This document shows, one piece after another, positions 381-63,810 of a stretch of 64,000 nucleotides of DNA (position 1 is the first letter of the stretch; each line of letters begins with the position of its first letter). The DNA is from Thermoplasmata archaeon (GTDB taxonomy: Archaea > Thermoplasmatota > Thermoplasmata > Lutacidiplasmatales > UBA184), in contig JAKAVQ010000006.1 in assembly GCA_021817245.1 (NCBI GenBank), positions 66,001 to 130,000 of the forward strand. Reading direction: 5' to 3'. The notes under the pieces were generated by a model, which was not told the origin of the DNA, made no database searches, and saw only the letters and a program-made list of their open reading frames with translations. The position numbers were made by a program, and so were the translations under genes.

Positions 381-675
381 AGCGACCCCCTCGTACGGCG
401 GGCCCGCACGGCCCATCCCCCCGGACCGGGACCGAGAGGCGAGGGGTCCTCCTCGATCTCGGGACGGGTCCCCCCCGGCCGGGTAGTGGGAACCGACTCC
501 GGGACCCGGGTCTCGGCCCTGGCGGGAAAACACGGTCCGGGCCTTGCGCTCCGGCTCCCGTGGCCTCGCCCGTCCCTGGAATGGGACCGGCCCCCCGATA
601 CCGCGAACTCCGACCGGATAACCCACGGAGCGCCGCGAGGGAGAGGACCCTGCCTTCGGGTCGGCGCGCGGGAAG

Positions 676-3036
676 CTACGGGGCCCCGCAGCCGGGGCAC
701 CGTCCGGCTTCCGCGGGTCGCACAGCGCCACAATACGGGCAGAGAAAGGTAGCGCCCGGATAGATTCCCCCCTGGACCCCGGGCCCGTACGGCGCCCCGG
801 GAAGCCCGTGAACGCCGGCAGGGATCATCGAGGGTCCCGTCCGGCGCGAGGGCCGCAGCATGAGGACGATCAGAACGATCCCCGCCACAAGGCCAACGCC
901 GAAGATCGCGAAGATCACCAGCCACGGCACCGAGGGAGACGGCGTCGACGCGGGGACCGGCAGCCCCGGGATCGGCCCGACGTACTGGTAGCTGCGGACG
1001 GTCGCGTTCTCGTCCGCCGCCAGGAAGAGGGGGGCGTCGATCCCGCCCCAGCCCGTGAGCGGATCCCAGCCCGGGGAGGCCGAGAAGACGTAGTTGTGAC
1101 CGGTCGTGACGCCGAGGAACGGATCCCGGGCCGGATCCGGGAAGGCGGCGTAATAGCTCGCGATCCGGTAGATCTCGGGATCCAGGAACCCGAGCGGTGC
1201 CCAGTCGGTGGCGTTGCGCGCGCTCTCTACGGCGATCACGTCGGCCAGCAGTCCCGCGAGCACCGGGCTCGCGATGCTCGTCCCTTCCAGGACCGCGAAG
1301 AAGATCGTGCCGGTCGCGTTTGCGAGGACGGTGGCGATCGTGCTGTTGCCGGCCATGGCGAGGTCCGGCTCGGCCCGGCCGAGGCTGGAAGCGCCCTGGA
1401 GGGCCGTGGCGTTGACGATCGCCGGCTGCGCCGCCGAGTGGAGCTGCCAGTACGGCTCCGGCGTCACCGTGCTCGCCCCCCCCTCGGTGCCCGCGATCGT
1501 CGAGGCACCGGGCGGTGCGTCGTACCAGGCCGTCTGCCCCGCGATCCCGGTCACGTTCGAGTCAAAGCTGAGGTTCAACGAGTTGTTGCCGTAGAAGCCG
1601 GTGGGAGAACCGCCCAGGGAGAGACTGACGCCCCCCACGGCGATCGGTCCCGAGACGTTCGTTGCGGCGGTCCCGGGCCACGTCGGCCAGGGACCGGTGC
1701 CCCGTCCGGTGAGCGAATCCGGTGCGTTCCCCTGGTCTCCGCTCGCGATCGTCACCGTTACCCCCATCGCCGATGCTTCGAGCAGGTCCGCGTTCCAGAG
1801 CGAGTTGTTGAGGTCGGGAAGTCCGAACGAGCCGGTCACCACGCCGAGGTGCTCGGGGGAGTAGTTCTGAGCGAGCGCGGAGGAGAGCGTAGCGGCGAAG
1901 TACCCCGCGATGGACTGGGCGTTCGGCGCCTGGGCCAAGAGGCTCCCTGCGAAGTAGAAGTTGTAGACCGACGCCCCGGGGGCGAGGCTTCCTGCCATCT
2001 CGAGGTCGAGGGAGTTCTCGAACTCGTCGAGGGTCGAGTCGTTCAGGCTCCCGAACGGGCCCGGAGGAGGCGGCGTCACCGTGCCGATCGTTACGGGGAC
2101 CCCGTGGATCGAGGGAGCGGGCCAGTTCGTCGGGAAGGTGGCGTTAAAGTAGGCGTCCACGACCGCCGGGTCGAACGCGGGGAGGTCCTGCTGCAGCGTT
2201 GTGTTGTACCCCCCGGCGAGCAGCGTCGCGATGGCGACGCCGGTCGGGAACGTCGCGTTCGCGACCGAGCCGCCCGGAAAGAGATCGGTCGCGTTGTAGG
2301 CCTGGGTGTAGTCGCTGCCGACGAACCAGTCCGACTGGGTCCGGTTGTCGTGGACGAACGAGGGTGCCGAGGCCAGCTGGCGGACGGGGCGGAGCGCGGA
2401 GGCCCGGAGATTGAACGAGAGCCGTCCCGACCCAAGGTCGCTGAGGCCGTTCACGGCGGCCACCGTCCCCGCAAGACCGCGCGGAAGTCTCGGGGTCCCG
2501 GTCGACGTGTAGAGCGGGACCGATCTTGCGTGCGCGAGGGCGACCAGGTGCACCCCGAGCAGCGCTTCGACCGCGCCGGTAGACATCGTGGCGAGGACCC
2601 CATTGCGGTCCGCGGTGACGGTGACGGAGGTGGCGCCTGCGGCCCGGAGCGCCTGGGTGACGACGGCGACCGACGCCGGGGAGGGGGCGTACTCGTGCTC
2701 GTACTCGGCCTGGGTCAAGAAGTGCCGGTACAGAGGAGACGCCGGGTCGTTGACCGATGCGACGAACCGGGCGAGCGCCGAAGGATCCCGTGGGGTCAGG
2801 GTGAAGCTCAGGTCGAGCGGATACGACGCGGCCAGGGGAGTCACGGAGGCCCCGGCGGGGATCGGGAGTGCGTCCGTTGTCATTGGGCCCGTGGCCAAGG
2901 CGACCGCGACCGGGGCGCGGCCGACCGGGCCCGTCGAAGTGGTCGTGACCAGACCCCCGGCCCAGGCTCCGGTGACCACGACGGAGACGAGGAGGACTGC
3001 GAGTGCACGGCGATCGCGAGCTCGACGAGCACTCAT
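676..3036 (-). CDS. Secreted sedolisin/S53-family serine peptidase (pro-kumamolisin-like) with C-terminal TM anchor and Cys4 zinc-ribbon tail
   Basis: 786 aa; N-terminal signal/TM (ALAVLLVSVVVTG); GTSIASP serine motif; many N-x-S/T sequons; C-terminal TM helix then CPYCG...CPGCG. Confidence 0.65.
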   Translation of the reverse strand: MSARRARDRRALAVLLVSVVVTGAWAGGLVTTTSTGPVGRAPVAVALATGPMTTDALPIPAGASVTPLAASYPLDLSFTLTPRDPSALARFVASVNDPASPLYRHFLTQAEYEHEYAPSPASVAVVTQALRAAGATSVTVTADRNGVLATMSTGAVEALLGVHLVALAHARSVPLYTSTGTPRLPRGLAGTVAAVNGLSDLGSGRLSFNLRASALRPVRQLASAPSFVHDNRTQSDWFVGSDYTQAYNATDLFPGGSVANATFPTGVAIATLLAGGYNTTLQQDLPAFDPAVVDAYFNATFPTNWPAPSIHGVPVTIGTVTPPPPGPFGSLNDSTLDEFENSLDLEMAGSLAPGASVYNFYFAGSLLAQAPNAQSIAGYFAATLSSALAQNYSPEHLGVVTGSFGLPDLNNSLWNADLLEASAMGVTVTIASGDQGNAPDSLTGRGTGPWPTWPGTAATNVSGPIAVGGVSLSLGGSPTGFYGNNSLNLSFDSNVTGIAGQTAWYDAPPGASTIAGTEGGASTVTPEPYWQLHSAAQPAIVNATALQGASSLGRAEPDLAMAGNSTIATVLANATGTIFFAVLEGTSIASPVLAGLLADVIAVESARNATDWAPLGFLDPEIYRIASYYAAFPDPARDPFLGVTTGHNYVFSASPGWDPLTGWGGIDAPLFLAADENATVRSYQYVGPIPGLPVPASTPSPSVPWLVIFAIFGVGLVAGIVLIVLMLRPSRRTGPSMIPAGVHGLPGAPYGPGVQGGIYPGATFLCPYCGAVRPAEAGRCPGCGAP

Positions 3037-8046: not shown

Positions 8047-8676
8047 ATGCGGATCATCGAGGTCTTCCACTCAATCCAGGGAGAAGGTCCGTTCACCGGG
8101 TTCCGCACGACGTTCGTACGGACCGCGCGCTGCAACCTCCGCTGCGCCTGGTGCGACACCCCGTACTCCTTTGGGCCGGGGCGCGCCCGCTCGGTCGCGT
8201 CGATCGTCCGGGAGGTCGTGCGGAACCGCACCCGCCACGTCTGTCTCACCGGCGGCGAGCCCCTCCTCCAGGCGGAGTCGGTCGAGCTCCTGCGGGAGCT
8301 CGGACACCGGGGGGTGGAGAGCGTGGTCGAGACGGGCGGCTCGCTGGATGTCCGACCGTACCTCGAGCTTCCCCACGTCGCGCTGAGCGTCGACGTAAAG
8401 TGCCCCTCCTCCCGGATGGAGGACCGCAACCGCTGGACGAACCTCCCCCTCCTGCGGACCGGCGACATCGTGAAGTTCGTGATCGCGGACCGCACGGACT
8501 ATCTCTATGCGAAGCGCGTGCTCCGACGGTATCCTCTCGCGCCGACGATCGTATTTCAGCCGGTCTGGGGGACGGACGCGGGCCGTCTCGCGGACTGGGT
8601 GCTGCGCGACCACCTCGACGTGCGGGTTATGCTTCAGGAGCACAAGGTCCTCTGGGGCGACGTGCCCGGACGCTAG
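8047..8676 (+). CDS. queE: 7-carboxy-7-deazaguanine synthase (radical SAM)
   Basis: 209 aa; MRIIEVFHSIQGEGPFTG...CNLRCAWCDTPY radical-SAM CxxxCxxC. Confidence 0.85.
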   Translation: MRIIEVFHSIQGEGPFTGFRTTFVRTARCNLRCAWCDTPYSFGPGRARSVASIVREVVRNRTRHVCLTGGEPLLQAESVELLRELGHRGVESVVETGGSLDVRPYLELPHVALSVDVKCPSSRMEDRNRWTNLPLLRTGDIVKFVIADRTDYLYAKRVLRRYPLAPTIVFQPVWGTDAGRLADWVLRDHLDVRVMLQEHKVLWGDVPGR

Positions 8677-8741
8677 GGCGTGTCTCACGGCGGACCACCG
8701 GAAGCCTAAAGAGCCGCGTGTCTAGGTTCGGCCCCTCGACC

Positions 8742-9851
8742 ATGTCCGACGCTCGCACGCTCGCAACGGGGTGGATGCCGAGCGCGGAGAGCGTCTTCGG
8801 CAAGGCGAAGGGGATGGTCTTTCCCCGGATCGTGCTGGTCGGCCACGGGGTGATCGACGATCTCGCGCGCACCTGTCACCAGTTCGACTTTCCCCGGCGA
8901 GGGTTTGTCGTTACTGGACCGCGGACCGCCGAGCTCGCCGGCCACCGGGCGACCAAGATCCTCAACGAGGGCGGGTTCGAAGCCACCACCGTGATCGCTC
9001 ACGAGGCGACCGAAGCGGAGGTCGCTCGGGTCGAGAGCGAAGTGCGGGCCGGTGGAGGTCGGTTCGTGATCGGCGTTGGCGGGGGCAGCAAGATCGACGT
9101 GACCAAGGTCGTCGCGGCGCACCTCTCGATCCCGTTCGTGAGCCTCCCGACGTCGGCGGCGCACGACGGGATCTCCTCCCCCCGCGCGTCGCTGCACGGC
9201 GTGGGGAGCGCGACGAGCACCGAGGCCGCGGTCCCGATCGGTGTCATCGCCGACACCGAACTCATCGTCCAGGCACCGTTCCGTTTGCTCGCCTCGGGCT
9301 GCGCCGACGTCATCTCGAACCTCACCGCCGTTCTCGACTGGAAGCTCGCGGTCCGTCTGCGCAACGAGGAGTACTCGAGCACCGCCGCGACGCTGAGCGC
9401 GTACGCCGCCGAGGAGATCATGGAGCATGCGGACGCGATCAAACCGAACCTCGAGGAGTCCGTCTGGATCGCGATCCGGCCCATCCTCGTCGCAGGGATC
9501 GCGATGAGCGTGGCCGGTTCCTCCCGCCCCTGCTCGGGAAGCGAGCACCTCTTCAGCCACGCCCTCGATCGAGTTTCCGAGCATCCGAGCCTGCACGGCG
9601 AGCAGTGCGGCGTCGGAGCGATCATGATGATGTACCTGCACGGAGGCGACTGGCGCCGTCTCAAGGAGGCGCTGCTCGCGATCGGCGCACCCACGACCGC
9701 CCGCGAGCTCGGGGTCACCCCCGACGAGATCGTCCGGGCGCTCGTAATGGCCCACTCGATCCGACCGGACCGCTACACGATCCTCGGCGACAATGGGCTC
9801 ACCCAGCACGCGGCCGAACGGCTCGCGCGGGTGACCGGTGTGGTGGGGTGA
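8742..9851 (+). CDS. egsA: Glycerol-1-phosphate dehydrogenase [NAD(P)+] (archaeal lipid backbone)
   Basis: 369 aa from the ATG at 8742; GVGGGSKIDVTKV, SAAHDGISSPRASL, EHLFSHALD iron-ADH/G1PDH family motifs; archaeal hallmark. Confidence 0.85.
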   Translation: MSDARTLATGWMPSAESVFGKAKGMVFPRIVLVGHGVIDDLARTCHQFDFPRRGFVVTGPRTAELAGHRATKILNEGGFEATTVIAHEATEAEVARVESEVRAGGGRFVIGVGGGSKIDVTKVVAAHLSIPFVSLPTSAAHDGISSPRASLHGVGSATSTEAAVPIGVIADTELIVQAPFRLLASGCADVISNLTAVLDWKLAVRLRNEEYSSTAATLSAYAAEEIMEHADAIKPNLEESVWIAIRPILVAGIAMSVAGSSRPCSGSEHLFSHALDRVSEHPSLHGEQCGVGAIMMMYLHGGDWRRLKEALLAIGAPTTARELGVTPDEIVRALVMAHSIRPDRYTILGDNGLTQHAAERLARVTGVVG

Positions 9852-9860
9852 GCGGGACCG

Positions 9861-10289
9861 ATGGCCGAGATCACGTTGCTGTCGAAAGCGGAGGCACGCG
9901 AGGGATACGAGTTCGTCTACGAGGGGGGAGGCCCGGTGTGCCGGACCTGCCCGTACCGCCACGCCTGCCTTACGCTCGACCCCGGACGGCGGTACACCGT
10001 CGTGAAGGTCCGCTCGGTGGCGCACCCCTGCGCCCTCCAGGAGACCGAGGCGAACGTCGTCGAGGTGAAGGCCGTCCCGCGATCGCTCGTGGTCGACCAC
10101 CGCAGCGCGATCGTCGGGAGCTCGGTCGAGGTCGGACGGTATCCGTGCCGACGGCTGGACTGCCCGAACTGGTGGGACTGCGCCGGCCCATCGCTCCCCG
10201 CGAAGCAGCGATACCGGATCGGCGCGGTCACTCCCGGCACGGCCGAGTGCCGGATCGGCCGAACGTTGAAACGGGTCGAGGCCGTCTAG
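9861..10289 (+). CDS. UPF0179-family archaeal protein
   Basis: 142 aa; Cys-rich conserved archaeal protein (CRTCPYRHAC...PCAL...CPNWWDC). Confidence 0.7.
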   Translation: MAEITLLSKAEAREGYEFVYEGGGPVCRTCPYRHACLTLDPGRRYTVVKVRSVAHPCALQETEANVVEVKAVPRSLVVDHRSAIVGSSVEVGRYPCRRLDCPNWWDCAGPSLPAKQRYRIGAVTPGTAECRIGRTLKRVEAV

Positions 10290-10303
10290 TCCGACCGCGA
10301 TGC

Positions 10304-10412
10304 GGGGCTGTGGGGTAGCTACGGGCGCGAGGAAGGCGCCTCCGTCCGCTCTACTGGTCCATCCTTCGGGCTTTGGGAGCCCGGGACCCCGATTCAAATT
10401 CGGGCAGCCCCA
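10304..10412 (+). tRNA. tRNA-Pro (anticodon TGG) with a ~34-nt intron in the D-loop
   Basis: Acceptor GGGGCTG/CAGCCCC with discriminator A; anticodon arm CGGGC-TTTGGGA-GCCCG (TGG, G37); T arm CCCGA-TTCAAAT-TCGGG; exons total 75 nt; inserted block TACGGGCGCGAGGAAGGCGCCTCCGTCCGCTCTA lies between AGC and CTGGTCC of the D-loop. Confidence 0.7.
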
Positions 10413-51333: not shown

Positions 51334-51340
51334 TTTTATA
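51334..51340 (+). promoter_or_regulatory. TATA-box-like element (TTTTATA) upstream of tRNA-Arg
   Basis: AT-rich heptamer about 44 bp upstream of the tRNA 5' end. Confidence 0.35.
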
Positions 51341-51383: not shown

Positions 51384-51492
51384 GCCCGTGTGGGGTAGCT
51401 ACGGGTCCGGGGCAATCCCCCCGGCTCGCTGCAATGGATTATCCTAGAGGCCTGCGGAGCCTCAGACCTGGGTTCGAATCCCAGCACGGGCG
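51384..51492 (+). tRNA. tRNA-Arg (anticodon GCG) with a ~35-nt intron in the D-loop; probable integration target
   Basis: Acceptor GCCCGTG/CACGGGC with discriminator G; anticodon arm GAGGC-CTGCGGA-GCCTC; T arm CTGGG-TTCGAAT-CCCAG; inserted block TACGGGTCCGGGGCAATCCCCCCGGCTCGCTGCAA sits at the same D-loop point as in tRNA-Pro. Confidence 0.7.
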
Positions 51493-51544: not shown

Positions 51545-52840
51545 ATGGCGAAGCGGATTGACCACCGACCCCTGCTCATGGACAAGCAAATCCGCACATG
51601 GTACGACGAGAACTCGCTTCGGTCGAGGCTGACCGCAGAGGTTAACCTTCGGCAACTCGGCCTCTTCTGTCACGTCACAGAAACCGATCCTCGACGACTC
51701 GTCCAGCTCGGTCAGAGAGATCCCGAGCGGCTGCACGGAACCCTCGTTCGATACGCGAAGACGCTCCAAGGATCGGGCCGGCTTCCGAGTTACATCGCAA
51801 AGACGTTCGTGGGAATCAAGGGGTGGCTTCGTTTCAACCGCGTCGAGTTCGACCAGTTTCCCCGACTCCGAGTGGTCCAGGGCGAATCCATCCGAGAGGA
51901 GCGCGTCCCCACCCAGGAGGAGCTTCGAAGGATCCTCTCGACCTACTCGGCCAGGGGGCGCGTCGTTTCCCTGCTCATGGCGCACACCGGAGTCAGACCC
52001 GGCGTACTTGCAGCGATTGACGGTAGCGATGGCCTCCGGCTCTCCGATTTGAAAGACCTCGAGTTGGGTGCGGACCCCAAGTTCGGGCGTGTGCCCTTTC
52101 ACTTGGTCGTCCCGGCTCGGCTCTCCAAGACCTCGGTCGAGTACCACACCTTCGGGACGCCCGAACTCGCTGACGCGATCCTAGCGTACCTCGCCGAGCG
52201 GCGACAACGAGGGGAGGAACTCAGACCTTCGTCCCCGGTTGTTACCGTCGACGCGATGGGCGCCCGGACAAAGCTACGCGAGAAGTCGAAGACCGGTTTC
52301 ATCACGACGCCGATGATGATGCGCGCTCTCCGGGACGGCCTCAAGGCGATCCTCCCGAGCGCGCGGACCTACGTGTTCCGCGCCTACTGTTCGACCCAGA
52401 TGGTCTCGGCACGGATCGACCGAGACGTGCGCGAGGCGATCTTGGGTCACTCCCTCGGAGTGAGCGGCCGGTACAACCTCTCGAAGAAGCTACACCCTTC
52501 GGTGGTCGAAGAGCTCCGCCGGGAGTACGCAAGGGCCGTTCCTTACCTCGAGTCGGGCCGCCCCAAGGAGGATCGCGCGACTGTCCTCGAGGGAGTCCTC
52601 GCGGCGCTGCTCAAGGAGAAGGGGGTCAAGGACGACAAGATCAGCGAGGTCCTCGAGGGCAAGGTTGCGGGGGACGAACTCGAACGGATCCTGGGCTCAC
52701 GCAAGGCGGAGCCCATCCAAAGGGTGGTCCCGACGACGGGGGTTTCGGAGCTGCTCTTGCTAGGCTGGGAGTTCGTTTCCCCGCTCGGGACCGACCAGGC
52801 AGTTCTCCGGGCGCCCGCGAACGGCACGGCCCCCGTGTGA
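51545..52840 (+). CDS. int: Tyrosine-type site-specific integrase/recombinase
   Basis: 431 aa; catalytic-domain pattern LMAHTGVRPG (Arg), ILGHSLGVSGRY (His-x-x-Arg ... Tyr) with an N-terminal SAM-like domain. Confidence 0.8.
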   Translation: MAKRIDHRPLLMDKQIRTWYDENSLRSRLTAEVNLRQLGLFCHVTETDPRRLVQLGQRDPERLHGTLVRYAKTLQGSGRLPSYIAKTFVGIKGWLRFNRVEFDQFPRLRVVQGESIREERVPTQEELRRILSTYSARGRVVSLLMAHTGVRPGVLAAIDGSDGLRLSDLKDLELGADPKFGRVPFHLVVPARLSKTSVEYHTFGTPELADAILAYLAERRQRGEELRPSSPVVTVDAMGARTKLREKSKTGFITTPMMMRALRDGLKAILPSARTYVFRAYCSTQMVSARIDRDVREAILGHSLGVSGRYNLSKKLHPSVVEELRREYARAVPYLESGRPKEDRATVLEGVLAALLKEKGVKDDKISEVLEGKVAGDELERILGSRKAEPIQRVVPTTGVSELLLLGWEFVSPLGTDQAVLRAPANGTAPV

Positions 52841-52935
52841 GACCGCCACCCGGCTCCGGGGGACCCGCCATGAGCACCGACCTTCGGGCAGACGATTGTT
52901 ACCGAAACGGGTCAACGGTCCACCACTCAGTAGGG

Positions 52936-54225
52936 TTACTCGACTTTCCGTTCCCACCCCGCCCTCGAATAGATGCGCTGACGTTCGACCACTACCGTCC
53001 CGGTCGCTTGTCCAAGCCATCGGAGGTAGGAACGGACGCTCTTTGCCCTCCGTATGGGGGTCGAGCCTCGCAAGTGCGACGTGGCCTCGATGATGCGAGC
53101 TACTTCGGAGTCACTCACTCCCTCGGCCCCCCTCTCCCGCACGAGGCTGAACACGCGGTTGAGTAGAGGATTCTTGAGCAATCGTTCGGCGACAAGTAGT
53201 TCCCTTCTCTCTTGGGGAAGCCCCACGTACTGCCTTCCCTTGTCGGTGAGTGCGAACACTCCCTCTTCGAGCCGTACGAGCCCGAGTGCTTCCGCGGCTT
53301 CGCGGTAGTAACTCCCTTGACGGGTGGTGATCTTGTAGTGGTCCGCCCACCCCTTCGCCGTCGTGATTCCCGATTGGACGAGAAGGGGTAGCTCCACGAC
53401 CTTCCGCAAGTCATCGGCTTGGGGGACGATATCGACGCTCGGGTCGGGCGTGACGTCACTCAACCAATCTTGGGGAGCCTGCTCTTCGACGACCCGGTAT
53501 CGGGCCCTGCTTCGGCACCTGATACTCTCGTAGTCGTACGAGTCCGTCCACTCGTATTCCCACACCGAATAGGTCGAGACATCGGGTTCGGCAACGAAGA
53601 AGAACGAGCGGACGCTCTTGCCGGGCGACCACTCCCGGAACGTTCGGTAGGGAAAGTAGAGTTGCCGAACGAGAAAGTCGCGGCGGGTGTCGGCCTTTCC
53701 TTCGAAGAGCAGAACGTCACGCGGACCTTCGAACCCGGCGTCGAGTTCCATACCGGCTCCCCGAACGTCGAGATTCGGCGAGCCGTCGATTCGAAACGTG
53801 AACGTGCCGCTCCCCATCTTTCCCGAGATGGTTTGGTAGAGGGACGGGACGCCCGAGAAGTGGCTCAGGAGGCCCGTGTGGTAGGCGTGGAGGAGAAACC
53901 GGTTCTCCCCTTTACCATACGCAAGTGTCGTGAGCGAGATGGGCAGTCGGGCGCGGTAGGCTTGCGGCTCGCCGGGGTCTTCGAGTTCGTGGTAGCCCCT
54001 CCCACGAACTACGGCGTACCGAGATCGCGAGAGGGGGACCACGAACACGCCGTTATCGCGGAACAAGGTAGGGAGCTTGTCTTCGGAATCCATCGAAGCG
54101 AGCAGGCGGGGCTCGACACCGAGATGGATGTGGATGTCTTGGTTGGTGACGAAATTGACGGGGGCCGTGATGTCGAGATGGAGCTTGTCAATGAGTTCGG
54201 ACCATCGCTCGTGAAGTACGACCAT
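52936..54225 (-). CDS. Putative type II restriction endonuclease with additional C-terminal winged-helix domain
   Basis: 429 aa; directly downstream of, and co-oriented with, a Dam methylase; PD-(D/E)xK-like GMELD...LFEGK; C-terminal about 140 aa looks wHTH. Confidence 0.45.
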   Translation of the reverse strand: MVVLHERWSELIDKLHLDITAPVNFVTNQDIHIHLGVEPRLLASMDSEDKLPTLFRDNGVFVVPLSRSRYAVVRGRGYHELEDPGEPQAYRARLPISLTTLAYGKGENRFLLHAYHTGLLSHFSGVPSLYQTISGKMGSGTFTFRIDGSPNLDVRGAGMELDAGFEGPRDVLLFEGKADTRRDFLVRQLYFPYRTFREWSPGKSVRSFFFVAEPDVSTYSVWEYEWTDSYDYESIRCRSRARYRVVEEQAPQDWLSDVTPDPSVDIVPQADDLRKVVELPLLVQSGITTAKGWADHYKITTRQGSYYREAAEALGLVRLEEGVFALTDKGRQYVGLPQERRELLVAERLLKNPLLNRVFSLVRERGAEGVSDSEVARIIEATSHLRGSTPIRRAKSVRSYLRWLGQATGTVVVERQRIYSRAGWERKVE

Positions 54226-54229
54226 CGAC

Positions 54230-55060
54230 CTACCCGTAATTCATCACAAGCAACTCGTCAATCGCGCCGCGGGCCGTCCCCTTGGAGTTGATGGCTCGCT
54301 TTGCCTTCAACGCCTCAATCCGGAACCCGTCGTAGAGCGTCTTGACGAGCGGCGTCGCGGAGTTGGAGAGCATCACGAGGACCCCCCGCTTGTCGAGCCG
54401 GCGATAGGTTTCGGCAAGCTTCCTTTGCTCTCGGTTTCCGAAGTCCTCTTTGGTGTAGCTCGTGAACTTGGACGTTTCGCTCAACGGGTGGTAGGGGGGG
54501 TCCAAGTAAACGAAGTCCCCGATCTTGACCCTCGCACACACCTTCTGGTAGTCGGCGAGGACAATGTTCTTACCGCGGAGAAGGGCACTCGTCGCGGGCA
54601 AGTTCTCCCGGTCGTAGAGAGTTGGGTTCTTGTAGCCGCCCCACGGGACGTTGAAGTTGCCGTCGGAGTTTACCCGATACAAGCCGTTGAAGCACGTCTT
54701 GTTCAGGAAGATGGTTCGTGCGGCTCGCTCGACCGACGAGAGCGTAGATGGGTCCGTGGCTCGAACCTTGTAGAAGTAGGCTTCCTCGGTTCGTTGCGGG
54801 AGGTGTTCGTCGAGCGCCCGCATTAGGCCGCCGGGGTCATCGCGAACGATTGTGAACGTGTTGACGAGTTCGGGGTTCGAGTCGGACAACATGGCCTTCT
54901 CGGGCTGGAGATGGAAGAAGACGGCCCCTCCCCCGAGGAACGGCTCGAAGTACGTTCGAAAGTCCTTCGGGAAGAACGGCTCCATCTGGGGAATAAGTTG
55001 GGCCTTTCCCCCCGCCCACTTGAGAAAGGGGCGCGCCGGGAGGAGGGTCTGGGCCAGCAC
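54230..55060 (-). CDS. dam: DNA adenine methyltransferase (Dam/D12 class N6-adenine MTase)
   Basis: 276 aa; motif I FLKWAGGK...FEPFLGGGAVFF and catalytic DPPY (VYLDPPYHPLS). Confidence 0.85.
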   Translation of the reverse strand: MLAQTLLPARPFLKWAGGKAQLIPQMEPFFPKDFRTYFEPFLGGGAVFFHLQPEKAMLSDSNPELVNTFTIVRDDPGGLMRALDEHLPQRTEEAYFYKVRATDPSTLSSVERAARTIFLNKTCFNGLYRVNSDGNFNVPWGGYKNPTLYDRENLPATSALLRGKNIVLADYQKVCARVKIGDFVYLDPPYHPLSETSKFTSYTKEDFGNREQRKLAETYRRLDKRGVLVMLSNSATPLVKTLYDGFRIEALKAKRAINSKGTARGAIDELLVMNYG

Positions 55061-55410
55061 GCGGGGCCACCAGCAACGGACTACTTACGCGGAACGCTCA
55101 CCGCCACGTCGAACCCGTAGCCGGCGAGGAATCGGGCGGATCTACCCCCGAAAGAGCGCCGTGGAGCCTCTTTGACGGCCCTGTGAACGAAGGATCTGGG
55201 GGTATCGACGGGCGGCCCGTGGGAACAGGAGAGAGAAACGCTCGGGCCCCGTTTTCGGTTCCGACGCGAACTGGGACATGGGCGAGGGCACGATAAGCCT
55301 GCGAGGGTCGGGGGTGGCGGGGCGCAGTAAGGGGGGATGTGCGTAGGCATCACCCACTCTTGTGGATGCTCCCCGCAGGAAGCCATGTGTGTACGCGCGT
55401 TCGAACCGCG

Positions 55411-55522
55411 GCACCGGCCGGTGCCCGGGAAGCGTAGGCCGGTGTCGTCCGGTGCCGTCGGGGACCGCGCCCCGTGCCGCTTGGTGCCGCAACGGTGCCG
55501 AGCCGGCGTCGGTCCGGTGCCG
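55411..55522. repeat. Iteron-like cluster: at least 7 copies (4 perfect) of GGTGCCG / CGGTGCCG within about 110 bp
   Basis: Read directly: GGTGCCC 55420, GGTGTCG 55441, GGTGCCG 55451, GTGCCG 55474, GGTGCCG 55483, 55494, 55516; inverted copy GCACCGG at 55411. Confidence 0.5.
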
Positions 55523-55634
55523 TCGACAAACCCGGGCGATGTGACGCTCTCCGACACCAAGCCGGTTGCAGATCGCGAAGAGACGGGGGGCGGCACTGGG
55601 AGATGCGACGTTACCCGTTACTGTGGAGGCGGCC

Positions 55635-56134
55635 TGATGTGGCGCGCTCCAACGCGCGCGCGTGAGGACGGAACGGACCGGACCACGCGCTTCCTGCTTT
55701 CCAGCAGGCGGCGTGATGTGGCGCGCTCTCTCACGGGCGCGCGAGGGGGGGAGGATCCGGGCCGGACGAGGACGCGCCGGACGAGTGGGACGAGCCGGAC
55801 GAGTGCTCGCCCCGGACGACTCCCGTTGGCCGGCAGCTGGTCGCCTACCTGGACCGGGAGCAGGCGCTTTCGGCGGCAAAGGATCGCGCCGGGGCGGAGC
55901 GACGCAAGCCTCCCGTCTGCGAGGACTGCGGGGCACGATTCAGCCGGAGGGATGCGATGGAGCGCCACCAATGGAGCGTTCACGGGAATGGAGCGTGACG
56001 CCCGTGGTGGTGGTGGGCGGGGCGCCCCGCCATATATATATCCCGTGCGCGCGCGAGGACGGACCGGACCACGCGCTTCCTGCTTCCCAGGAGGCGACGT
56101 GAAGTGGCGCGCGCTCTCACGCGCGCGTGAGGGG
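55635..56134. repeat. Two ~75-bp imperfect direct repeats (55674-55750 and 56061-56134, about 90% identical) plus a partial third copy (55635-55667)
   Basis: GGACCGGACCACGCGCTTCCTGCTT(T/C)CCAG(C/G)AGGCG(G/A)CGTGA(T/A)GTGGCGCGC..CTCTCACG(G/C)GCGCG(C/T)GAGGGG; contains CCTGCT..AGCAGG and GCGCGC..GCGCGC inverted repeats. Confidence 0.6.
56031..56041. promoter_or_regulatory. (TA)5 alternating tract, strong TATA-box candidate just upstream of repeat copy 2
   Basis: CATATATATAT, the only pure AT tract in about 2 kb; flanked by CGCGCGCG. Confidence 0.35.
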
Positions 56135-56424
56135 AGCGAGGTCTTCCCCCGGACGAGGACGAGCCGAGGGACAACCTCGTGACACGTTACCAGTAGGAGC
56201 GGGCCGGATCGAGACACTCCGGGCACGGGTCGCCAAGTCGCATCGAGCCGCTGGGCGGTCCCGGGTCCCCGGTCCTGACGCGCGAGAACTACACGCGCGA
56301 GAGGGGGCGCGGGCTCGTCCGGGCGGGCGGGACGAGGGCGGGTCGCTCGCCCGCACACACAAACGGACACGGCCCGTTCCGGAACGTTGTCGGTGGAGGA
56401 AGAGAGCGGACGAGGACGAGTCGG

Positions 56425-56913
56425 TCATGCGCTCGCCCCTCCCGACGGTGCGCACCGCTTGAGATGGCGGCTCAGATTGTCCCGCCGAACCGAGAGGCCG
56501 CACCAGGGGCAGGGAGCGCGGTAGGCACCAGACCAGGCCGAGGGACGGTCAGGGGAGGTGGGCGTGGAGTCCTTCGCTCTCTTGGCCTCTCCTCGAGGCG
56601 GAAGGGGAGAGGGTGGCAGTGGTGGTGGGCGAATAGGCGCGGTACGTACCGTATCCGTTGCGGGGACGAGCGAGGGTCGGACGAGTCGGGGCCACCCCCC
56701 TCCCCGCTCACACATATGGGACACGGCCCGTTCCGTAACGTTTCCGGACCGGAGGGAATAGGCGGTCGCTCCGCTGCGCTCACAACCGGTGCCCGGTATA
56801 GGGCAGGGTCGTCCTCTCCGCGCGCACCGCGTGCACCTTGTGCGCAGACGTCTCCATGCCGTCCGCTCCCACGGAGAGTCCACTTCGTGCGTGCCTCTGG
56901 CGTGTGCGGTCAT
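56425..56913 (-). CDS. Candidate small zinc-finger protein (zinc ribbon plus C-terminal C2HC finger)
   Basis: C-terminal CPWCGLSVRRDNLSRHLKRC (C-x2-C-x12-H-x3-C) and upstream CTRC...CPIPGTGC; start assigned to an internal Met; speculative. Confidence 0.3.
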   Translation of the reverse strand: MTAHARGTHEVDSPWERTAWRRLRTRCTRCARRGRPCPIPGTGCERSGATAYSLRSGNVTERAVSHMCERGGGWPRLVRPSLVPATDTVRTAPIRPPPLPPSPLPPRGEAKRAKDSTPTSPDRPSAWSGAYRAPCPWCGLSVRRDNLSRHLKRCAPSGGASA

Positions 56914-57172
56914 GGGAACAGCCGCAGGCCGAGTGCAACCGGCGGTCGCACGCAGTCCCCGGCGGCGACGACAAGCGATAGACCCACGCGAGATGATGGT
57001 GTGAGCAAAGTCCCCGCCCGAGAACCGTCGCCCGAGTCTCGGTGTGACCCAGGGGGTACGACCGAAGGGCTGGGTCCGGGCCCGGGCGGGATCTCGCGCG
57101 ATCGGTGCCAAGGACCCGGGCCGAAGGAAGGATTTATCATTCAGCGACATATCCCATCCCTCCCGAGGGGAT

Positions 57173-57436
57173 ATGTCCGAGAAGAGTCGCCATCTGGTAG
57201 AATCCCGACTTGCGCGCATTGAAGGTCACATACACGCCGTCCACCGCATGGCCCATGAAGGAAGGAGTTACCCCGAGATCGTCCACCAGATCTCCGCTAT
57301 TCGATCTTCCTTGGATGCCGCGGTTCAAGCAATCGTTGACGATCTGGTTCGGAGCTGTATCCACGACGCGTCCGGCAACGAATCCATTGCCTCGACCGTG
57401 GAGGAACTTCAGGCCGTCGTCGCCAGCGCTCTCTAG
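57173..57436 (+). CDS. CsoR/RcnR/FrmR-family metal-sensing transcriptional repressor
   Basis: 87 aa; LARIEGHIHAVHRMAHEGRSYPEIVHQISAIRSSLDAAVQAIVDDLVRSCIHD matches the DUF156 helical-bundle pattern; His/Cys ligand positions present. Confidence 0.75.
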   Translation: MSEKSRHLVESRLARIEGHIHAVHRMAHEGRSYPEIVHQISAIRSSLDAAVQAIVDDLVRSCIHDASGNESIASTVEELQAVVASAL

Positions 57437-57468
57437 CGAGTACCCTCCCCCCTCCTTCCCGGGTACAA

Positions 57469-58374
57469 ATGCCGATCCTTCAGCACGGAGAGGGAGAAGC
57501 CGAAGCCCGCATACTGGTGGGGCTCCGCCTCGCTGTCCAGCTCAGCGTGGTGATTCTTGTGATGGAGGCCCTCGGTGCCTTCTTCTCTCGCAGTCTTTCG
57601 CTGACCGTAGACGCCGTTCACGACCTTCCCGACATCTTCGCGTTCCTGCTGTCCTGGGGGGCCTTGAGGTCGACGTCGAAGGGGCCTTCCGAAGGGTTCA
57701 CTTTCGGCTCGCACCGCTTGGAAACCTTCGCGGGCGTTCTCAACGCGGTGGTCGTTCTGATCGTGGGCGCCGCCTTCGGGGCGGAAGCGTTCTCTGCACT
57801 CTGGTCAAGAAGCACCTTCGCCGGCCCCGTGAACGCCGTCTGGCTTCTCGCCGCGGCGGTGCCCACCCTGGTGCTTAGGCTAATCGGTGTCGGCGTTCTG
57901 AACCGGCTCCCGGGAAAGGTCCGGGACCTGAATCTCGCGAGCGTTCTCCTCCACATGGCGAGTGATATCGCTATCACGGGGGCGCTTCTCGTCGTAAGCG
58001 CCGTCCTCTTCATCCAGCCTGCTTGGGGGGTGGCCGATCCCATTGCCGCCCTCGTCATCGCCGGAGTCCTTGTCTACGAGTCGATTCCACTGCTGCGAGA
58101 AGGGTGGAGAATCCTTACCGAACGTGCTCCGAGAGGTATCTCAGTGGAGGCGATTGAGCGAGAGGCCCTCAGCGTCCCGGGTGTTTCGGGACTGCACGAT
58201 CTCCACGTCTGGTCAGTTTGCAGTTCCCTCGTCTGCCTCACCGCGCATGTAGGAGTGAAGGAAATGTCGCTTCGAGACTGCATGTCGGTCGTCGCAGAGC
58301 TGAGGAGCAAAATGGAGCGCGAGTTCGGCATTGTCCACGCCACGTTTGAGATAGAGGGACAGTCGAGCGCGTGA
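57469..58374 (+). CDS. Cation diffusion facilitator (CDF) family metal exporter
   Basis: 301 aa; six TM helices with HD/HD-like metal site motifs (AVHDLPD; HMASDIAI) and C-terminal cytoplasmic domain. Confidence 0.85.
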   Translation: MPILQHGEGEAEARILVGLRLAVQLSVVILVMEALGAFFSRSLSLTVDAVHDLPDIFAFLLSWGALRSTSKGPSEGFTFGSHRLETFAGVLNAVVVLIVGAAFGAEAFSALWSRSTFAGPVNAVWLLAAAVPTLVLRLIGVGVLNRLPGKVRDLNLASVLLHMASDIAITGALLVVSAVLFIQPAWGVADPIAALVIAGVLVYESIPLLREGWRILTERAPRGISVEAIEREALSVPGVSGLHDLHVWSVCSSLVCLTAHVGVKEMSLRDCMSVVAELRSKMEREFGIVHATFEIEGQSSA

Positions 58375-58620
58375 GGAGGTCGTTCCTCCGGGGGCCATTT
58401 GGGGGTTGGCTCTTGGTTCGAAACGGATCGAGCCCGATGGGACCGAACCCTCACATCGTTCACCGACTTCGAGATCCTGCGGATGCTGAACCGTACGCTC
58501 CGGAGCGTCGGCGGCATGCCCTGTAGGGCAGTCGAGTGCGGATGAACTGACGGCCGGCGCGGTCCCTAGCCGAGTTCGATGGCGACAGATCTTGTCCGTC
58601 CGGTTTCGTATCAACTGGGG

Positions 58621-59241
58621 TCAACCGAGCTTCCTCAAGATGAACCGCCGCGAGAACGGCTTGGCTTTGCCTGGGATCACCTCCCACGAACGTCGCGAAA
58701 GCAACTCGCGGAATCGCCGCTCCGATGTCCGCAGGGCCCTACCGCGGCTGGTCAAGCCCGGACCAATCGTCACGAAGGTCACCAAGGCGCGGCCTCCCGG
58801 TTTGAGGATTCGCCACATCTCCTCCATCGCTCGCTCCTTGTCGACCAGGCAACAAAGGAGCCCGTTCGAAAGGATGTAATCCACACTGCCGGAGGGGATG
58901 GACGGCACCGAAGCTGCGGAGCAATGGATGAACTCCACCCGGTCCGTCACCTCCAAGGTGGTGGCGACCTGCCGCGCCAACGACAGGGCGTCGTCGTCGA
59001 GATCGACGGCGTAGATCCGTCCCGCTACCCCGATTCTCCGACTTAGCTCTGCGAGGAAAAACCCGCCTCCGGCACCGAGGTCCGCAACCACGTCCCCCGG
59101 CCTGGGCGGGCAGAAGTCAATCAGGCGGCCCGGCTTCTTGAACCACCGTCGAAGCGGGTTGTGGAAGAACCACGTCGGCAGGGTTCGGTCCCGAACACCC
59201 AAAGTCGACACGGTTCCGGGCGACCTTCCGAAGAGAGGCAC
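58621..59241 (-). CDS. Class I SAM-dependent methyltransferase (type 11)
   Basis: VVADLGAGGGFF motif I; ILKPGGRALV post-II. Confidence 0.6.
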   Translation of the reverse strand: MPLFGRSPGTVSTLGVRDRTLPTWFFHNPLRRWFKKPGRLIDFCPPRPGDVVADLGAGGGFFLAELSRRIGVAGRIYAVDLDDDALSLARQVATTLEVTDRVEFIHCSAASVPSIPSGSVDYILSNGLLCCLVDKERAMEEMWRILKPGGRALVTFVTIGPGLTSRGRALRTSERRFRELLSRRSWEVIPGKAKPFSRRFILRKLG

Positions 59242-59255
59242 GCGACGTTGGGAGG

Positions 59256-60116
59256 TTACGGCATGTTCATCGGGCCAGGTCCACCGCAGCAGTCCTCGAG
59301 GTTGATGACCGTGACCACCTGTTGCGCATCGTATCCATACTGCACGATCAAGGCCTTGGCCAAGCCCTCATGAGCATAGTAGGCCCAGCACTGGCAGCAG
59401 CACCAGCCGTTGTCGTTCGTGTTGCTAGCCGCCGTGTTGAAGATGGCTTGCTGGCTCGAGGTGAGCCCATCGCCGGCATGCGCCACGTCGGCTTTCGCCG
59501 TGTGCGCGACCACGTTGTAGGGGTCGGGCGGGATGAGGGAGATCGAAGCGTAGCTCGTGAGCCCCGGAATCTGGGACGAATAGTCCGGGGTGTAGTCCAT
59601 CGGACTGCAACACGAGCCTTGGATGTAGGTGGTGTCCGCCAATCCGTTGATCCAGTTGACGTACGCCGTTTCATCGCCGAGACTGACTCCCGTCCACACA
59701 CACGCGTCGGTGGACTGTTGGCTGAGGTAGTTGAATTCAACCTGGGTCCCTGCCGCTCCCGGACCCGGGTTGGTTCCCGGTTTCGGTGGGCCTCCGAAGA
59801 GAACGCCCGACGTGAAGATGAGGTAGAGCACCAGGATCAGCACGGTGACGGCGGAACCGCCGATAATGATTGAGCGCAATCGCTTCCGGCCGCCTCGGCC
59901 GGCTCGGTCTCCCCCGCGATCGGGACCTCCCGGAGCTTGGGGTCCCGAACGGCTGCTCCGGGAGCGACGCTGGAAATAGAGCGCCCGCAGGGCGCGGCCG
60001 GCGTCAGCGCCCGGAGGGGGGTGGAAGCCGGCCTTCCGATCCCTGGCCACCTTGTCCCAACTGACCCCGTCGGCGCGAAGCTGTTCGACACGCTCCCAGT
60101 CGGTCATGCGTCGCAA
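59256..60116 (-). CDS. Membrane-anchored Cys-rich extracellular protein (hypothetical)
   Basis: Single TM (AVTVLILVLYLIFTSGVLF) then a domain with 10 Cys (CC, CCCQC, CC). Confidence 0.4.
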   Translation of the reverse strand: MRRMTDWERVEQLRADGVSWDKVARDRKAGFHPPPGADAGRALRALYFQRRSRSSRSGPQAPGGPDRGGDRAGRGGRKRLRSIIIGGSAVTVLILVLYLIFTSGVLFGGPPKPGTNPGPGAAGTQVEFNYLSQQSTDACVWTGVSLGDETAYVNWINGLADTTYIQGSCCSPMDYTPDYSSQIPGLTSYASISLIPPDPYNVVAHTAKADVAHAGDGLTSSQQAIFNTAASNTNDNGWCCCQCWAYYAHEGLAKALIVQYGYDAQQVVTVINLEDCCGGPGPMNMP

Positions 60117-60318
60117 CTACCCGGACAACGGATATATAGATTGACCGCGCGCGGGCAACCGACGGGAACGGGCTGCTGGGCCACCCGGTGTCGACGGCCG
60201 GATTCTCCCTCCGGACGGTCGGGTTCTTGAACGGCCGCATCAACAAAATGGCAACGCAGGGCCCGACGAGCGTCGCCCCCGCGGTTCGTACCCCCCTGAC
60301 AAGTAGCGGGATGAGTGG

Positions 60319-60963
60319 TTGCACTCCCGAGGGAGACGTCCTACCATGACCGGCGTCGCGGAGCAAGGTGAGGGATGGATCCTCCGCCATCGTGGAGCGG
60401 TTCGTCGGTCGGCCCGTATGGTCTTCGGATTCGTCTGGGGAATCGATGCCGCGCTCGCGTTCTTCCCGCAGACTCCGTTTTGGTTCTCGGAGAGCGTTCT
60501 CGCCGCGAGCATCGGCCAGCCTTCCTGGCTCTCCGGCTGGTATGCCTTCTGGGTGGTCCAAGCCCAGCAGTACGCAGCACTGGACGTGGGGGTCGTCACC
60601 TTTCTCGAACTCGCGTTGTGCGTTTCGCTCATCGTGGGACTTTTGAGAAAGACCGCCTACCTCGGGGGGATAGGCCTGAGCTTGTTCATTTGGGCGGTTC
60701 CTAATGGGTTCGGAGGCCCGTACGACGTAGGCACTTTTGACGTGGGAGTGGGCGTCATTTACGCGATCGCGTTCCTGTTCCTGATGGTGCTTGACGCCGA
60801 CCCATCCGCCAAGGTAGGGACCGTCGACGGGTGGATCGAGCGCCGTTGGCCGGGTTGGGCCCGCTGGGCGGAGGTCTCTACTTCGGTATTCCGCGCTCAG
60901 GAGAGGGTCTCTCGCAGACCTCATGAGGTCCCAGCAACTCCTCCGGTCCGGCAGGACCCATGA
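60319..60963 (+). CDS. Integral membrane protein, paralog A of a three-member family (VPxGFGGPY motif; DoxX-like?)
   Basis: FIWAVPNGFGGPYDVGTFDVGVGVIYAIAFLFLM; stop overlaps the cupredoxin start (ATGA). Confidence 0.5.
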   Translation: MHSRGRRPTMTGVAEQGEGWILRHRGAVRRSARMVFGFVWGIDAALAFFPQTPFWFSESVLAASIGQPSWLSGWYAFWVVQAQQYAALDVGVVTFLELALCVSLIVGLLRKTAYLGGIGLSLFIWAVPNGFGGPYDVGTFDVGVGVIYAIAFLFLMVLDADPSAKVGTVDGWIERRWPGWARWAEVSTSVFRAQERVSRRPHEVPATPPVRQDP

Positions 60964-61682
60964 CAGCCGGCAAGGAGCATGCCGCAATCGACTCGCCGGC
61001 GACCGGCCAGCACCCTCCGGGTCGTCCTCTCGGGCCCGTCGTCGTCGTTCTGGTGGTGGCGATCCTCGTCGGTCTCGCGGGGACTGCCTTCGCCTTTATG
61101 ATCGTCGAAGCGCCGTCACTGGCTTCGGCAGGATGCCCCTCGGTCGCTCAGTACGACCCTACGGTCTCGACGATCAACAATCAGACGTTCACCGAAGATA
61201 ACTCCCTGCCCCCGGGGGTCAGCGAAACTCCGGCGATGAATTCGATTACGCTCACGGCGACCGGGGCGACGTTGCTCATCGAGGGGGCGCCCGGGTGGTA
61301 TCCTCACTCCGGGAACTACTTCCTGAGCTACGGACTCGTGAACCCGCAACTCTCCGTGCCTTCGGGAGAGCCGGTGCGGTTCGAATTCATCAACATGGAC
61401 AACGAGTCCCACGACTTCGCGCTGACCACCCAGCCGCCGCCGTATCCCTACATGCCGATGATGAGCGGGGGAGGGATGATGGGAATGGGTGGCGGGAGCG
61501 GCTGCTGGCTTTCCGTGGGGTCGATGATGGTCAATGGAATAACGGCACCGAGCGCAAACCCGGTCTACCAGACCACCGCTGCCACGCTCAGCTTCGCGGG
61601 CCCGGGGACGTTCTGGTATCTCTGTCTGATGCCGGGCCACGCTCAATCGGGGATGTACGGTCAGCTGACCGTCCGAGGCTGA
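60960..61682 (+). CDS. Membrane-anchored type-1 copper protein (sulfocyanin/plastocyanin-like cupredoxin)
   Basis: N-terminal TM; Cu ligands in FINMDNESHDFAL (His) and WYLCLMPGHAQSGMYG (Cys-x2-His-x4-Met), the canonical cupredoxin C-terminal loop. Confidence 0.7.
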   Translation: MTAGKEHAAIDSPATGQHPPGRPLGPVVVVLVVAILVGLAGTAFAFMIVEAPSLASAGCPSVAQYDPTVSTINNQTFTEDNSLPPGVSETPAMNSITLTATGATLLIEGAPGWYPHSGNYFLSYGLVNPQLSVPSGEPVRFEFINMDNESHDFALTTQPPPYPYMPMMSGGGMMGMGGGSGCWLSVGSMMVNGITAPSANPVYQTTAATLSFAGPGTFWYLCLMPGHAQSGMYGQLTVRG

Positions 61683-63323: not shown

Positions 63324-63810
63324 GCAACCGGTCTCCGTCGACGCGATCCACGTCCCGACCCGCGGATCTCCGGTAGGCGCGACGATCCGTCACCCGGTCC
63401 TCGTGGCCCTGGTTTCGCTGGAACTCGGTTTGTTGGCCGTCCAGTTCGCGCTCGGAATGTTCGTCAATCTGTATGTGACGTTCCCGTCGCCCGTCTTCGG
63501 GATGTACGGCTTGATGCAACTGATGTTCCAGCCGGGAATGGGGACCGTAATGGCTCACATGATGACCGGCATGGTCTTGGGCGCCCTCACCCTGCTCACG
63601 TTCGCGGCCGCCGCCCTCTCCCGAAACACGCTCCTGATCGCCGCGACCGGGGGGACGTTCGCCGCTGTAGTGGCAGCGGGAATCAGCGGCATGGAGTTCT
63701 TGTTCTCCGGGCAGAATAACGCCTACTCGTACGGGATGTCACTGGGGTTCCTCTTGGCGTTTACGATGGCGTTTCTCAGTCTTCTCGTCGCATCGGGCCG
63801 GACGAGATAG
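63298..63810 (+). CDS. Met-rich integral membrane protein (possible Cu(I)-handling)
   Basis: 170 aa; four TM helices; MYGLMQLMFQPGMGTVMAHMMTGM Met-rich motif. Confidence 0.4.
   Translation: MPMTRPSTMQPVSVDAIHVPTRGSPVGATIRHPVLVALVSLELGLLAVQFALGMFVNLYVTFPSPVFGMYGLMQLMFQPGMGTVMAHMMTGMVLGALTLLTFAAAALSRNTLLIAATGGTFAAVVAAGISGMEFLFSGQNNAYSYGMSLGFLLAFTMAFLSLLVASGRTR

Follow-up and report, generated by a model that had tools for sequence, protein, structure and literature searches.

Two tRNA genes in a 64-kb window (the whole stretch of DNA analysed here, 64,000 nucleotides) are interrupted at the same place in the D-loop, which raises the question of whether the interruption is an intron, how it could be removed and whether it is mobile. 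The original prediction had placed a tRNA-Pro and a tRNA-Arg gene there, had proposed that both form cloverleaves only after removal of 34-35 nt, and had suggested a lineage-specific, possibly mobile class of intron processed through a motif known as bulge-helix-bulge (BHB). We found both genes exactly where they had been placed, as tRNA-Pro(UGG) and tRNA-Arg(GCG) (Table 1). We consider, with a probability of about 0.8, that they encode functional tRNAs, each with a short intron of the archaeal protein-spliced type, placed between nucleotides 17 and 17a of the D-loop, that is old and vertically inherited.

Table 1. Positions of the two tRNA genes, their predicted exons and introns and the elements of the predicted splice motif within the window
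Feature	Position	Strand	Description and basis
tRNA-Pro(UGG) gene with D-loop intron	10304..10412	+	109 nt, no encoded CCA
tRNA-Pro 5' exon, nt 1-17, ending A14 G15 C16 U17	10304..10320	+	Splice-motif geometry; intronless tRNA-Pro with the same D-arm reads TAGC-T-TGG
tRNA-Pro predicted intron, 34 nt, A18..C51	10321..10354	+	58 distinct introns versus 5 mature sequences; position 51 is C or U
tRNA-Pro intron hairpin h', closing pair C19-G45	10322..10348	+	MFE fold, covariation
tRNA-Pro 3' exon, starting U17a G18 G19	10355..10412	+	ARAGORN on the spliced form, intronless relatives, exon conservation
tRNA-Arg(GCG) gene with D-loop intron	51384..51492	+	109 nt, no encoded CCA
tRNA-Arg 5' exon, nt 1-17	51384..51400	+	Splice-motif geometry, ARAGORN on the spliced form
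tRNA-Arg predicted intron, 34 nt, A18..A51	51401..51434	+	55 distinct introns versus 5 mature sequences
tRNA-Arg helix H, 5' strand (exon G12-G15)	51395..51398	+	Pairs with intron 51429-51432 (C46 U47 R48 C49)
tRNA-Arg 3-nt bulge C16 U17 A18	51399-51401	+	Directly 3' of the 5' strand of helix H
tRNA-Arg intron hairpin h'	51402..51428	+	Fold, covariation
tRNA-Arg 3' exon	51435..51492	+	ARAGORN on the spliced form, exon conservation

Read by hand, both genes have an intact 7-bp acceptor stem, U8 and A14-G15-C16, an intact anticodon arm (UGG in tRNA-Pro, GCG in tRNA-Arg), a 4-nt variable loop and an intact T arm with UUCAAAU or UUCGAAU. The discriminator base is A in tRNA-Pro and G in tRNA-Arg. 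Some 34 extra bases separate A14-G15-C16 from U-G18-G19 in both genes. The identical 5' context and the TACGGG start of the inserts were as first described, with GTGGGGTAGC followed by TACGGG in each gene, and the window contains exactly two copies of the 14-mer GGGGTAGCTACGGG, against a chance expectation of 0.66 (at most two mismatches). Neither ARAGORN nor Rfam made any call on the unspliced tRNA-Pro. For the unspliced tRNA-Arg, both programs gave only a false, 5'-truncated tRNA at 51424-51492, which reached 29.6 bits against an Rfam gathering score of 29. Once 34 nt were deleted, ARAGORN folded both sequences into complete 75-nt cloverleaves with the conserved A14, G18 G19 and T loop. The cloverleaf, as proposed, forms only without the insert; the length first given as 34-35 nt is 34 nt in both genes. 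A structural search combining acceptor and T-arm elements found no further hidden tRNAs in the 64-kb window.

We examined the distribution of the insert in two ways. For the first, we started from UPF0179 proteins (75-85% identity), so that no intron pattern entered into the choice of loci. All 7 distinct tRNA-Pro(UGG) loci reached through this gene carried the intron, and the ends of their inserts were identical (AGCUACGG...CGCUCUAYUGG). A scan of one genome per species with the pattern AGCTACGG N16-34 CGCT NNNN TGG N33-39 TTCRAAT returned at least 119 loci; 115 of those listed were tRNA-Pro(UGG) or tRNA-Arg(GCG), and the other 4 of the 119 listed were chance bacterial matches. The 115 loci came nearly all from soil or peat Thermoplasmata MAGs of many independent projects, and the intron-bearing MAGs listed include Ca. 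Lutacidiplasma silvani, UBA184 and UBA61. Among the matches listed, the intron is specific to one lineage, of soil Thermoplasmata, in keeping with the lineage specificity of the original prediction. No tRNA type besides Pro(UGG) and Arg(GCG) appeared among the matches listed for the general intron pattern. The viral contigs that were searched gave no matches. Including the two genes of the window, at least 123 intron-bearing genes were collected (62 Pro and 61 Arg), all with the insert at the same non-canonical D-loop position that had been noticed in two different tRNAs. Since 123 genes share this arrangement and all seven loci reached through UPF0179 carry it, it stands far above chance. ARAGORN, when run on 60 related loci, made only false partial Arg calls and found no other tRNA.

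Exons and inserts differ sharply in their variability. The 62 Pro genes comprise 5 distinct mature sequences versus 58 distinct inserts, and the 61 Arg genes 5 versus 55. The sole recurrent exon change is a compensatory replacement of a G-C by an A-U pair in the Pro anticodon stem. The exons are under very strong purifying selection. The inserts range from 31 to 36 nt across the sample and form a single hairpin. In a gapless alignment of 54 sequences, 6 of its 10 pairs vary on both sides and 93.7% of cells are paired, compared with 42-57% in slid controls; none of 500 shuffles matched the covariation. This combination of a variable sequence and a covarying hairpin is typical of a spacer whose fold matters and whose sequence does not, and selection clearly acts on the hairpin structure. 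A group I or group II core, which is a catalytic RNA of hundreds of nucleotides, is absent from these 31-36-nt hairpins, which had zero Rfam matches.

The exon-intron junctions were folded with position 1 as the first nucleotide of each precursor. Exon G12-G15 pairs with intron positions 46-49 in a central helix (H), C16-U17-A18 form a 3-nt bulge with the 5' splice site, a hairpin (h') opens at the pair C19-G45, and A50-N51-U52, the 3' splice site region, lies immediately 3' of H. Neither the 3-nt bulge nor the closing pairs of h' vary across the sample. All 55 distinct Arg sequences have 4 of 4 bp in H, with a U-G (35) or U-A (20) pair at 13:48, and h' has a mean of 5.5 bp in register. The Pro precursors have 3 of 4 bp in H, with an invariant U13.C48 mismatch and a G12.U49 pair, and conform to the HBh' arrangement in part. 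In these precursors, a competing 5-bp helix (G11-G15 with 48-52) would bury the 3' site; because the energy model prefers it, the Pro precursor is less clear than that of Arg.

An exhaustive scan of every pair of splice sites across 119 sequences found no sensible strict hBHBh' motif (two 3-nt bulges, 4 bp between them and outer helices of at least 2 bp). The reason is the outer exon helix h, which reaches only 0-1 bp: G11 and G10 face G53 and G54, so that this helix is missing. Strict matches in other registers lay within invariant exon and would remove essential tRNA parts. By hand analysis, an alternative Pro motif (h G9-G11/U55-C57, bulge U52 G53 G54) was likewise discarded as a coincidence, as it would delete G18 and is absent in Arg. 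Given the lack of a sensible strict motif, the predicted structure is best classed as relaxed HBh', or bulge-helix-loop, a type already described (PMC6379350) and one to which the modelled Arg precursors conform. The BHB motif originally expected is present in kind, inasmuch as the junctions fold into a structure of the bulge-helix-bulge type, but it is relaxed rather than canonical, the exon-side helix at the 3' site being missing.

The exact junction can be predicted from this geometry and from intronless relatives. The splicing endonuclease of archaea, EndA, cuts two nucleotides into each bulge, which, given the bulge positions, predicts splice sites at U17/A18 and N51/U52, a junction AGCU/UGG and a mature D-loop A14-G15-C16-U17-U17a-G18-G19. 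The spliced junctions would read GGGGUAGCU/UGGUCC and GGGGUAGCU/UGGAUU. The base that precedes UGG, at position 51, can be any of the four in Arg and is C or U in Pro, as fits an intron base beside invariant exons. Other registers lead to a 13-nt D-loop or to a variable mature base. One of them, with cuts at U17 A18/C19 and A50/N51, is just as well paired in Arg, yet its D-loop would have 13 nt and include a variable base; we favoured the first register over it because AGCUUGG is what intronless tRNA-Pro genes that share the D-arm contain. These genes were collected by scanning metagenomes for GTGGGGTAGC N0-3 TGGTCCATCCT, on contigs that are not tied to intron-bearing genomes. TAGC-T-TGG was present in 109 of the 120 intronless same-D-arm tRNA-Pro loci, and in 67 out of 69 on contigs of at least 62% GC; the loci include 42 tRNA-Pro(CGG) (GC 0.63-0.73) and 6 tRNA-Pro(GGG) (GC 0.68-0.72). 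The predicted mature D-loop, AGCUUGGUCCA, is the one found in these intronless genes, and some intronless tRNA-Pro(UGG) genes have a 5' half identical to the spliced product of the window. The junction first proposed, AGC/CUGG, has no bulge geometry behind it, does not match the intronless tRNA-Pro genes and lies one base too far 5', whereas AGCU/UGG fits both the motif geometry and the intronless relatives.

Seven tRNA-Pro(UGG) loci share the 5' half GGGGCTGTGGGGTAGCTTGGTCCATCCTTCGGGCTTTGGGA with the spliced product and have no D-loop intron: L143, L189, L194 and L226 (metagenome, GC 0.67-0.69), L168, L195 and L257. Four of them have an insert at the canonical position 37/38, directly after the anticodon loop, and three are intronless. 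Their 3' halves differ from that of the window's gene, and they presumably represent sister lineages with a different intron history.

We propose that, in the precursor, exon G12-G15 and intron 46-49 would form the 4-bp helix H, leaving the C16-U17-A18 bulge at the 5' site, a stable, GC-rich h' and a 3' site in A50-N51-U52, right after H and with no helix beyond it. EndA would then cleave each bulge two nucleotides in, 3' of U17 and of N51, and an RtcB-type ligase would join the exons into 75-nt tRNAs. From the structure, its conservation and covariation, the exon junction defined by comparison and an EndA gene in one related genome, we infer both the cleavage by EndA and the ligation of the exons.

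To characterize the endonuclease, we searched with the M. jannaschii EndA (verified against PDB 1A79) as a seed and detected none in the window or the related tRNA loci; an A. fulgidus EndA fragment as query retrieved only short alpha-type proteins of other phyla. A profile search of protein cluster representatives yielded mostly two-repeat alpha'-type proteins of ~350 aa; filtering these by composition left candidates, none of them linked to a genome. A further search gave the EndA P0430 (353 aa), which contains PF02778 and PF01974 twice each. It is encoded at 159,941-169,002 of DASYYY010000021.1 (551,285 bp), a contig of a related MAG that also has an intron-bearing tRNA-Pro, in the stretch 344,001-352,000. 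In a hand-read alignment, the catalytic Tyr, His and Lys are seemingly kept in its C-terminal repeat only. At the graft site of the Crenarchaea-specific loop (CSL), also read by hand, 3P1Y (the CSL-engineered A. fulgidus EndA) has 22 residues, 1R0V (A. fulgidus) has GSEKGDLVTLSL and P0430 has GSRIGARLELSF, while the segment from DRV to LS(L/F)VEA counts 29 residues in P0430 versus 28 in M. jannaschii (1A79; hand count). The alignment at this site and the segment length argue against a CSL-size insertion, and P0430 appears to be a two-repeat alpha'-type EndA without a CSL/ASL-size loop. As judged from this one gene of one related genome, the enzyme is not of the broad-specificity kinds, (alpha-beta)2 with CSL or epsilon2 with ASL. 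The wild-type alpha'2 EndA of A. fulgidus hardly cuts even a strict BHB D-loop intron, and grafting the CSL gives it activity (PMC3241643); on the HBh' D-loop intron of M. kandleri, it cuts mainly at the bulge (PMC5829648). Set against these published assays, the alpha'-type P0430, one gene from one related genome, makes the enzyme of the lineage look mismatched to a relaxed D-loop substrate.

The genomic surroundings of EndA vary. In a high-GC Thermoplasmatota contig (L126; JBTSQI010000006.1), an alpha'-type EndA adjoins a class Ib aminoacyl-tRNA synthetase (Trp/Tyr type) and PheRS alpha, and in other EndA contigs (L127-L130, L131-L133) the gene follows CarS-like and phosphoribosyltransferase genes. 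These differing neighbours indicate that the neighbourhood of EndA is not conserved among these lineages.

The apparent mismatch bears on an alternative in which the intron is removed, but not by alpha'2 EndA alone. Its removal might then involve a paralogue or second subunit of the endonuclease, a helper protein, some modification, or another nuclease for the 3' site. A relaxed D-loop motif paired with an alpha'-type EndA devoid of a CSL/ASL-size loop would call for such help, given the published behaviour of the A. fulgidus enzyme. Nonetheless, the comparison involves one EndA gene from one related genome, whose specificity is not certain from sequence, D-loop introns are processed by the A. 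pernix EndA without a cofactor (PMC3241643), and no candidate factor was seen near the tRNA genes. We regard this alternative as unlikely.

Improbable, too, is the retention of the hairpin, which would give mature tRNAs with an extra helical arm in the D-loop. The hairpin structure is clearly under selection, the splice motif is incomplete, and the linked EndA belongs to a type reported to perform poorly on D-loop or relaxed substrates, all of which would suit a retained arm. However, exact removal of the insert leaves just the D-loop seen in intronless tRNA-Pro with the same D-arm, and in a retained arm the 3-nt bulge and the 4-bp exon-intron helix would have no role. Moreover, H occupies A14, G15 and half of the D stem, so that pairing of the insert in this way precludes the cloverleaf core. 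We know of no cytosolic tRNA with a 34-nt D-loop arm. Splicing by EndA remains the reading we prefer over both alternatives.

That the two genes are decaying, disrupted, redundant or an assembly artefact, with intact intronless copies doing the work, as their being missed by standard tools might hint, is very improbable indeed given that the same structure occurs in >100 MAGs from many independent studies and assemblers, that the exons show such strong purifying selection together with the compensatory stem change, that JGI metagenomes yielded no allele in which the exact tRNA-Pro(UGG) exons of the window stand without the intron (with a pattern requiring GAGCYCG in the anticodon stem, which excluded divergent intronless genes), and that GCG is the standard archaeal decoder for CGC and CGU, codons expected to be common in a genome of 70% GC.

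Whether the intron moves is a separate matter. The Pro and Arg introns share their position, their length and the boundary bases UACGG...CGCU..A (for most of the sample, ACGG and CGCU were prescribed by the search pattern itself), and their interiors are unrelated and not alignable. The boundary bases are shared partly because they pair with the shared exon UAGC. Active mobility would be expected to place the intron in many tRNAs or to leave a patchwork of presence and absence among close relatives; instead, just two tRNAs carry it among the matches listed, and it is present at all 7 orthologous loci. The suggestion of current mobility is not supported: the intron, limited to Pro(UGG) and Arg(GCG) among the matches listed, is fixed at orthologous loci in >100 species, and tRNA-Pro(CGG) and tRNA-Pro(GGG) with the same D-arm lack it (on similar high-GC contigs, not tied to the same genomes). 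A 2010 study by Fujishima et al. in Mol Biol Evol is said to have found, in Thermoproteales, that different tRNAs can have introns with related ends at one and the same position, which suggests intron copying between tRNA genes. In contrast to such transposition, only two tRNAs are concerned here, there is no sign of continuing spread, and the Pro and Arg interiors cannot be aligned beyond the boundary bases. A single copying of the intron between tRNA-Pro and tRNA-Arg, long ago, is plausible. In soil Thermoplasmata (Lutacidiplasmatales/TMEG and relatives), we take it to be old and vertically inherited, not an active mobile element.

The window is archaeal, with a GC content of 70%, and its host is a soil Thermoplasmata archaeon, Lutacidiplasmatales/TMEG-like. 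Its proteins are Arg-rich and not acidic, and the homologues of its UPF0179 protein are named Thermoplasmata or Ca. Lutacidiplasmatales; an origin in haloarchaea was rejected on these grounds. The Lutacidiplasmatales (formerly TMEG) have genomes of ~69% GC and ~2.1 Mb and live in acidic soil; the paper describing the order makes no mention of tRNA introns (PMC9287336). The window encodes a class I aminoacyl-tRNA synthetase, which we read as LeuRS, a glycerol-1-phosphate dehydrogenase-like Fe-ADH protein and a radical-SAM protein, which we read as QueE and for which Pfam backs the Radical_SAM superfamily alone. At 8047-10412, the gene order is radical-SAM (QueE-like), glycerol-1-phosphate dehydrogenase-like, UPF0179 and tRNA-Pro, an order kept in related contigs. 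Should the radical-SAM gene indeed be QueE, its product would supply the precursor of archaeosine, the modification of G15. This base lies two bases from the intron and is paired in precursor helix H; an influence of the intron on its modification is pure speculation. The UPF0179 stop codon lies 14 nt upstream of the start of tRNA-Pro, and no box comparable to that of tRNA-Arg was read within this 14-nt spacer; tRNA-Pro may share a transcript with UPF0179, or its promoter may lie within the UPF0179 gene. Upstream of tRNA-Arg, by ~44-50 nt, is a TTTTATA box (51334-51340), plausibly an archaeal promoter that would give this tRNA a short 5' leader. GatD and GatE adjoin tRNA-Arg.

Downstream of tRNA-Arg, an ORF at 51545-52840 (+), which starts 52 nt past the 3' end of the tRNA, matches the phage integrase PHROG_1 (E 7.8e-10) and weakly Pfam Phage_integrase. 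The next gene, at 52936-54225 (-), has DUF6996, DUF6997 and DUF7226, and GC falls from ~0.70 to 0.64 from 52 kb to the end of the window (52000-64000). This region looks like an integrated element for which tRNA-Arg served as the attachment site. The 3' end of tRNA-Arg is not repeated within the window, so that the far end of the element probably lies past 64 kb. Elsewhere, at 669-715 (+), the sequence AGCTACGGGGCCCCGCAGCCGGGGCACCGTCCGGCTTCC is similar to the intron (AGCUACGGG...CCGUCCG.CU) and is able to fold into a helix, a 2-3-nt bulge and a hairpin. We rejected it as a third motif, probably a chance one, because its fold is no better than that of shuffles (z = 0.24) and it lies within long ORFs on both strands.

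The main interest of these introns lies in their apparent conflict with the endonuclease type and in the genes being missed by common tRNA finders. Non-canonical D-loop introns have so far been described mainly where EndA has a specificity loop, and a relaxed D-loop intron together with a narrow-looking alpha'2-type EndA offers a testable case against the model of intron-endonuclease co-evolution. We put forward only tentatively, as a rather doubtful possibility, that a whole abundant soil archaeal order relies on a loop-less alpha'2-type EndA to excise relaxed D-loop introns from two tRNAs, one of them the decoder of CGC and CGU, common Arg codons. If so, the rule that only loop-bearing (alpha-beta)2 and epsilon2 enzymes handle such substrates would be incomplete, and either the alpha'2 enzyme would have gained broad specificity in another way or an unknown helper would exist. 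On a practical level, as ARAGORN and Rfam miss the Pro gene and mis-call the Arg gene in the window and at every related locus tested, the tRNA complements and quality scores of Lutacidiplasmatales-like MAGs will come out too low where they depend on such tools. The intron has been stable through the divergence of >100 species, making it a good system for dating its gain and for asking why it was kept; the dating is aided by other high-GC contigs in which tRNA-Pro(UGG) with an identical 5' half is intronless or has a 37/38 intron.

In the literature searched, non-canonical 17/17a D-loop introns whose BHB motif is relaxed are new for Thermoplasmatota, and introns of this kind are already known. 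Relaxed-motif introns at non-canonical positions outside Crenarchaeota also occur in ARMAN-2 (Ca. Micrarchaeum; Fujishima et al. 2011, PMC3239211), but there they lie in the T-loop region (53/54, 59/60) and are of hBH or strict type, and the EndA is a three-unit epsilon2 enzyme with a specific loop, whereas the linked EndA here has two repeats. The closest known cases are the D-loop introns of A. pernix tRNA-Thr2 and M. kandleri tRNA-Glu. The intron of A. pernix pre-tRNA-Thr2(UGU) is removed by EndA alone, as demonstrated experimentally (Hirata et al. 2011, PMC3241643). However, that precursor has a canonical BHB and meets a broad-specificity (alpha-beta)2 EndA with a Crenarchaea-specific loop, while the introns described here have a relaxed motif and P0430 shows no loop of that kind. 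The intron at 20b/21 in the pre-tRNA-Glu(UUC) of M. kandleri (Kaneta et al. 2018, PMC5829648) is, as here, a short euryarchaeal D-loop intron, and its motif is likewise HBh', with the 5' bulge, the central helix and the intron helix present and the exon helix of the other site missing. Its EndA, like P0430, lacks a CSL/ASL loop, but is (alpha-beta)2 rather than alpha'-type. In contrast to M. kandleri, the introns described here lie at 17/17a in two tRNAs, are not accompanied by a second, canonical intron in the same gene and are conserved across a whole soil order.
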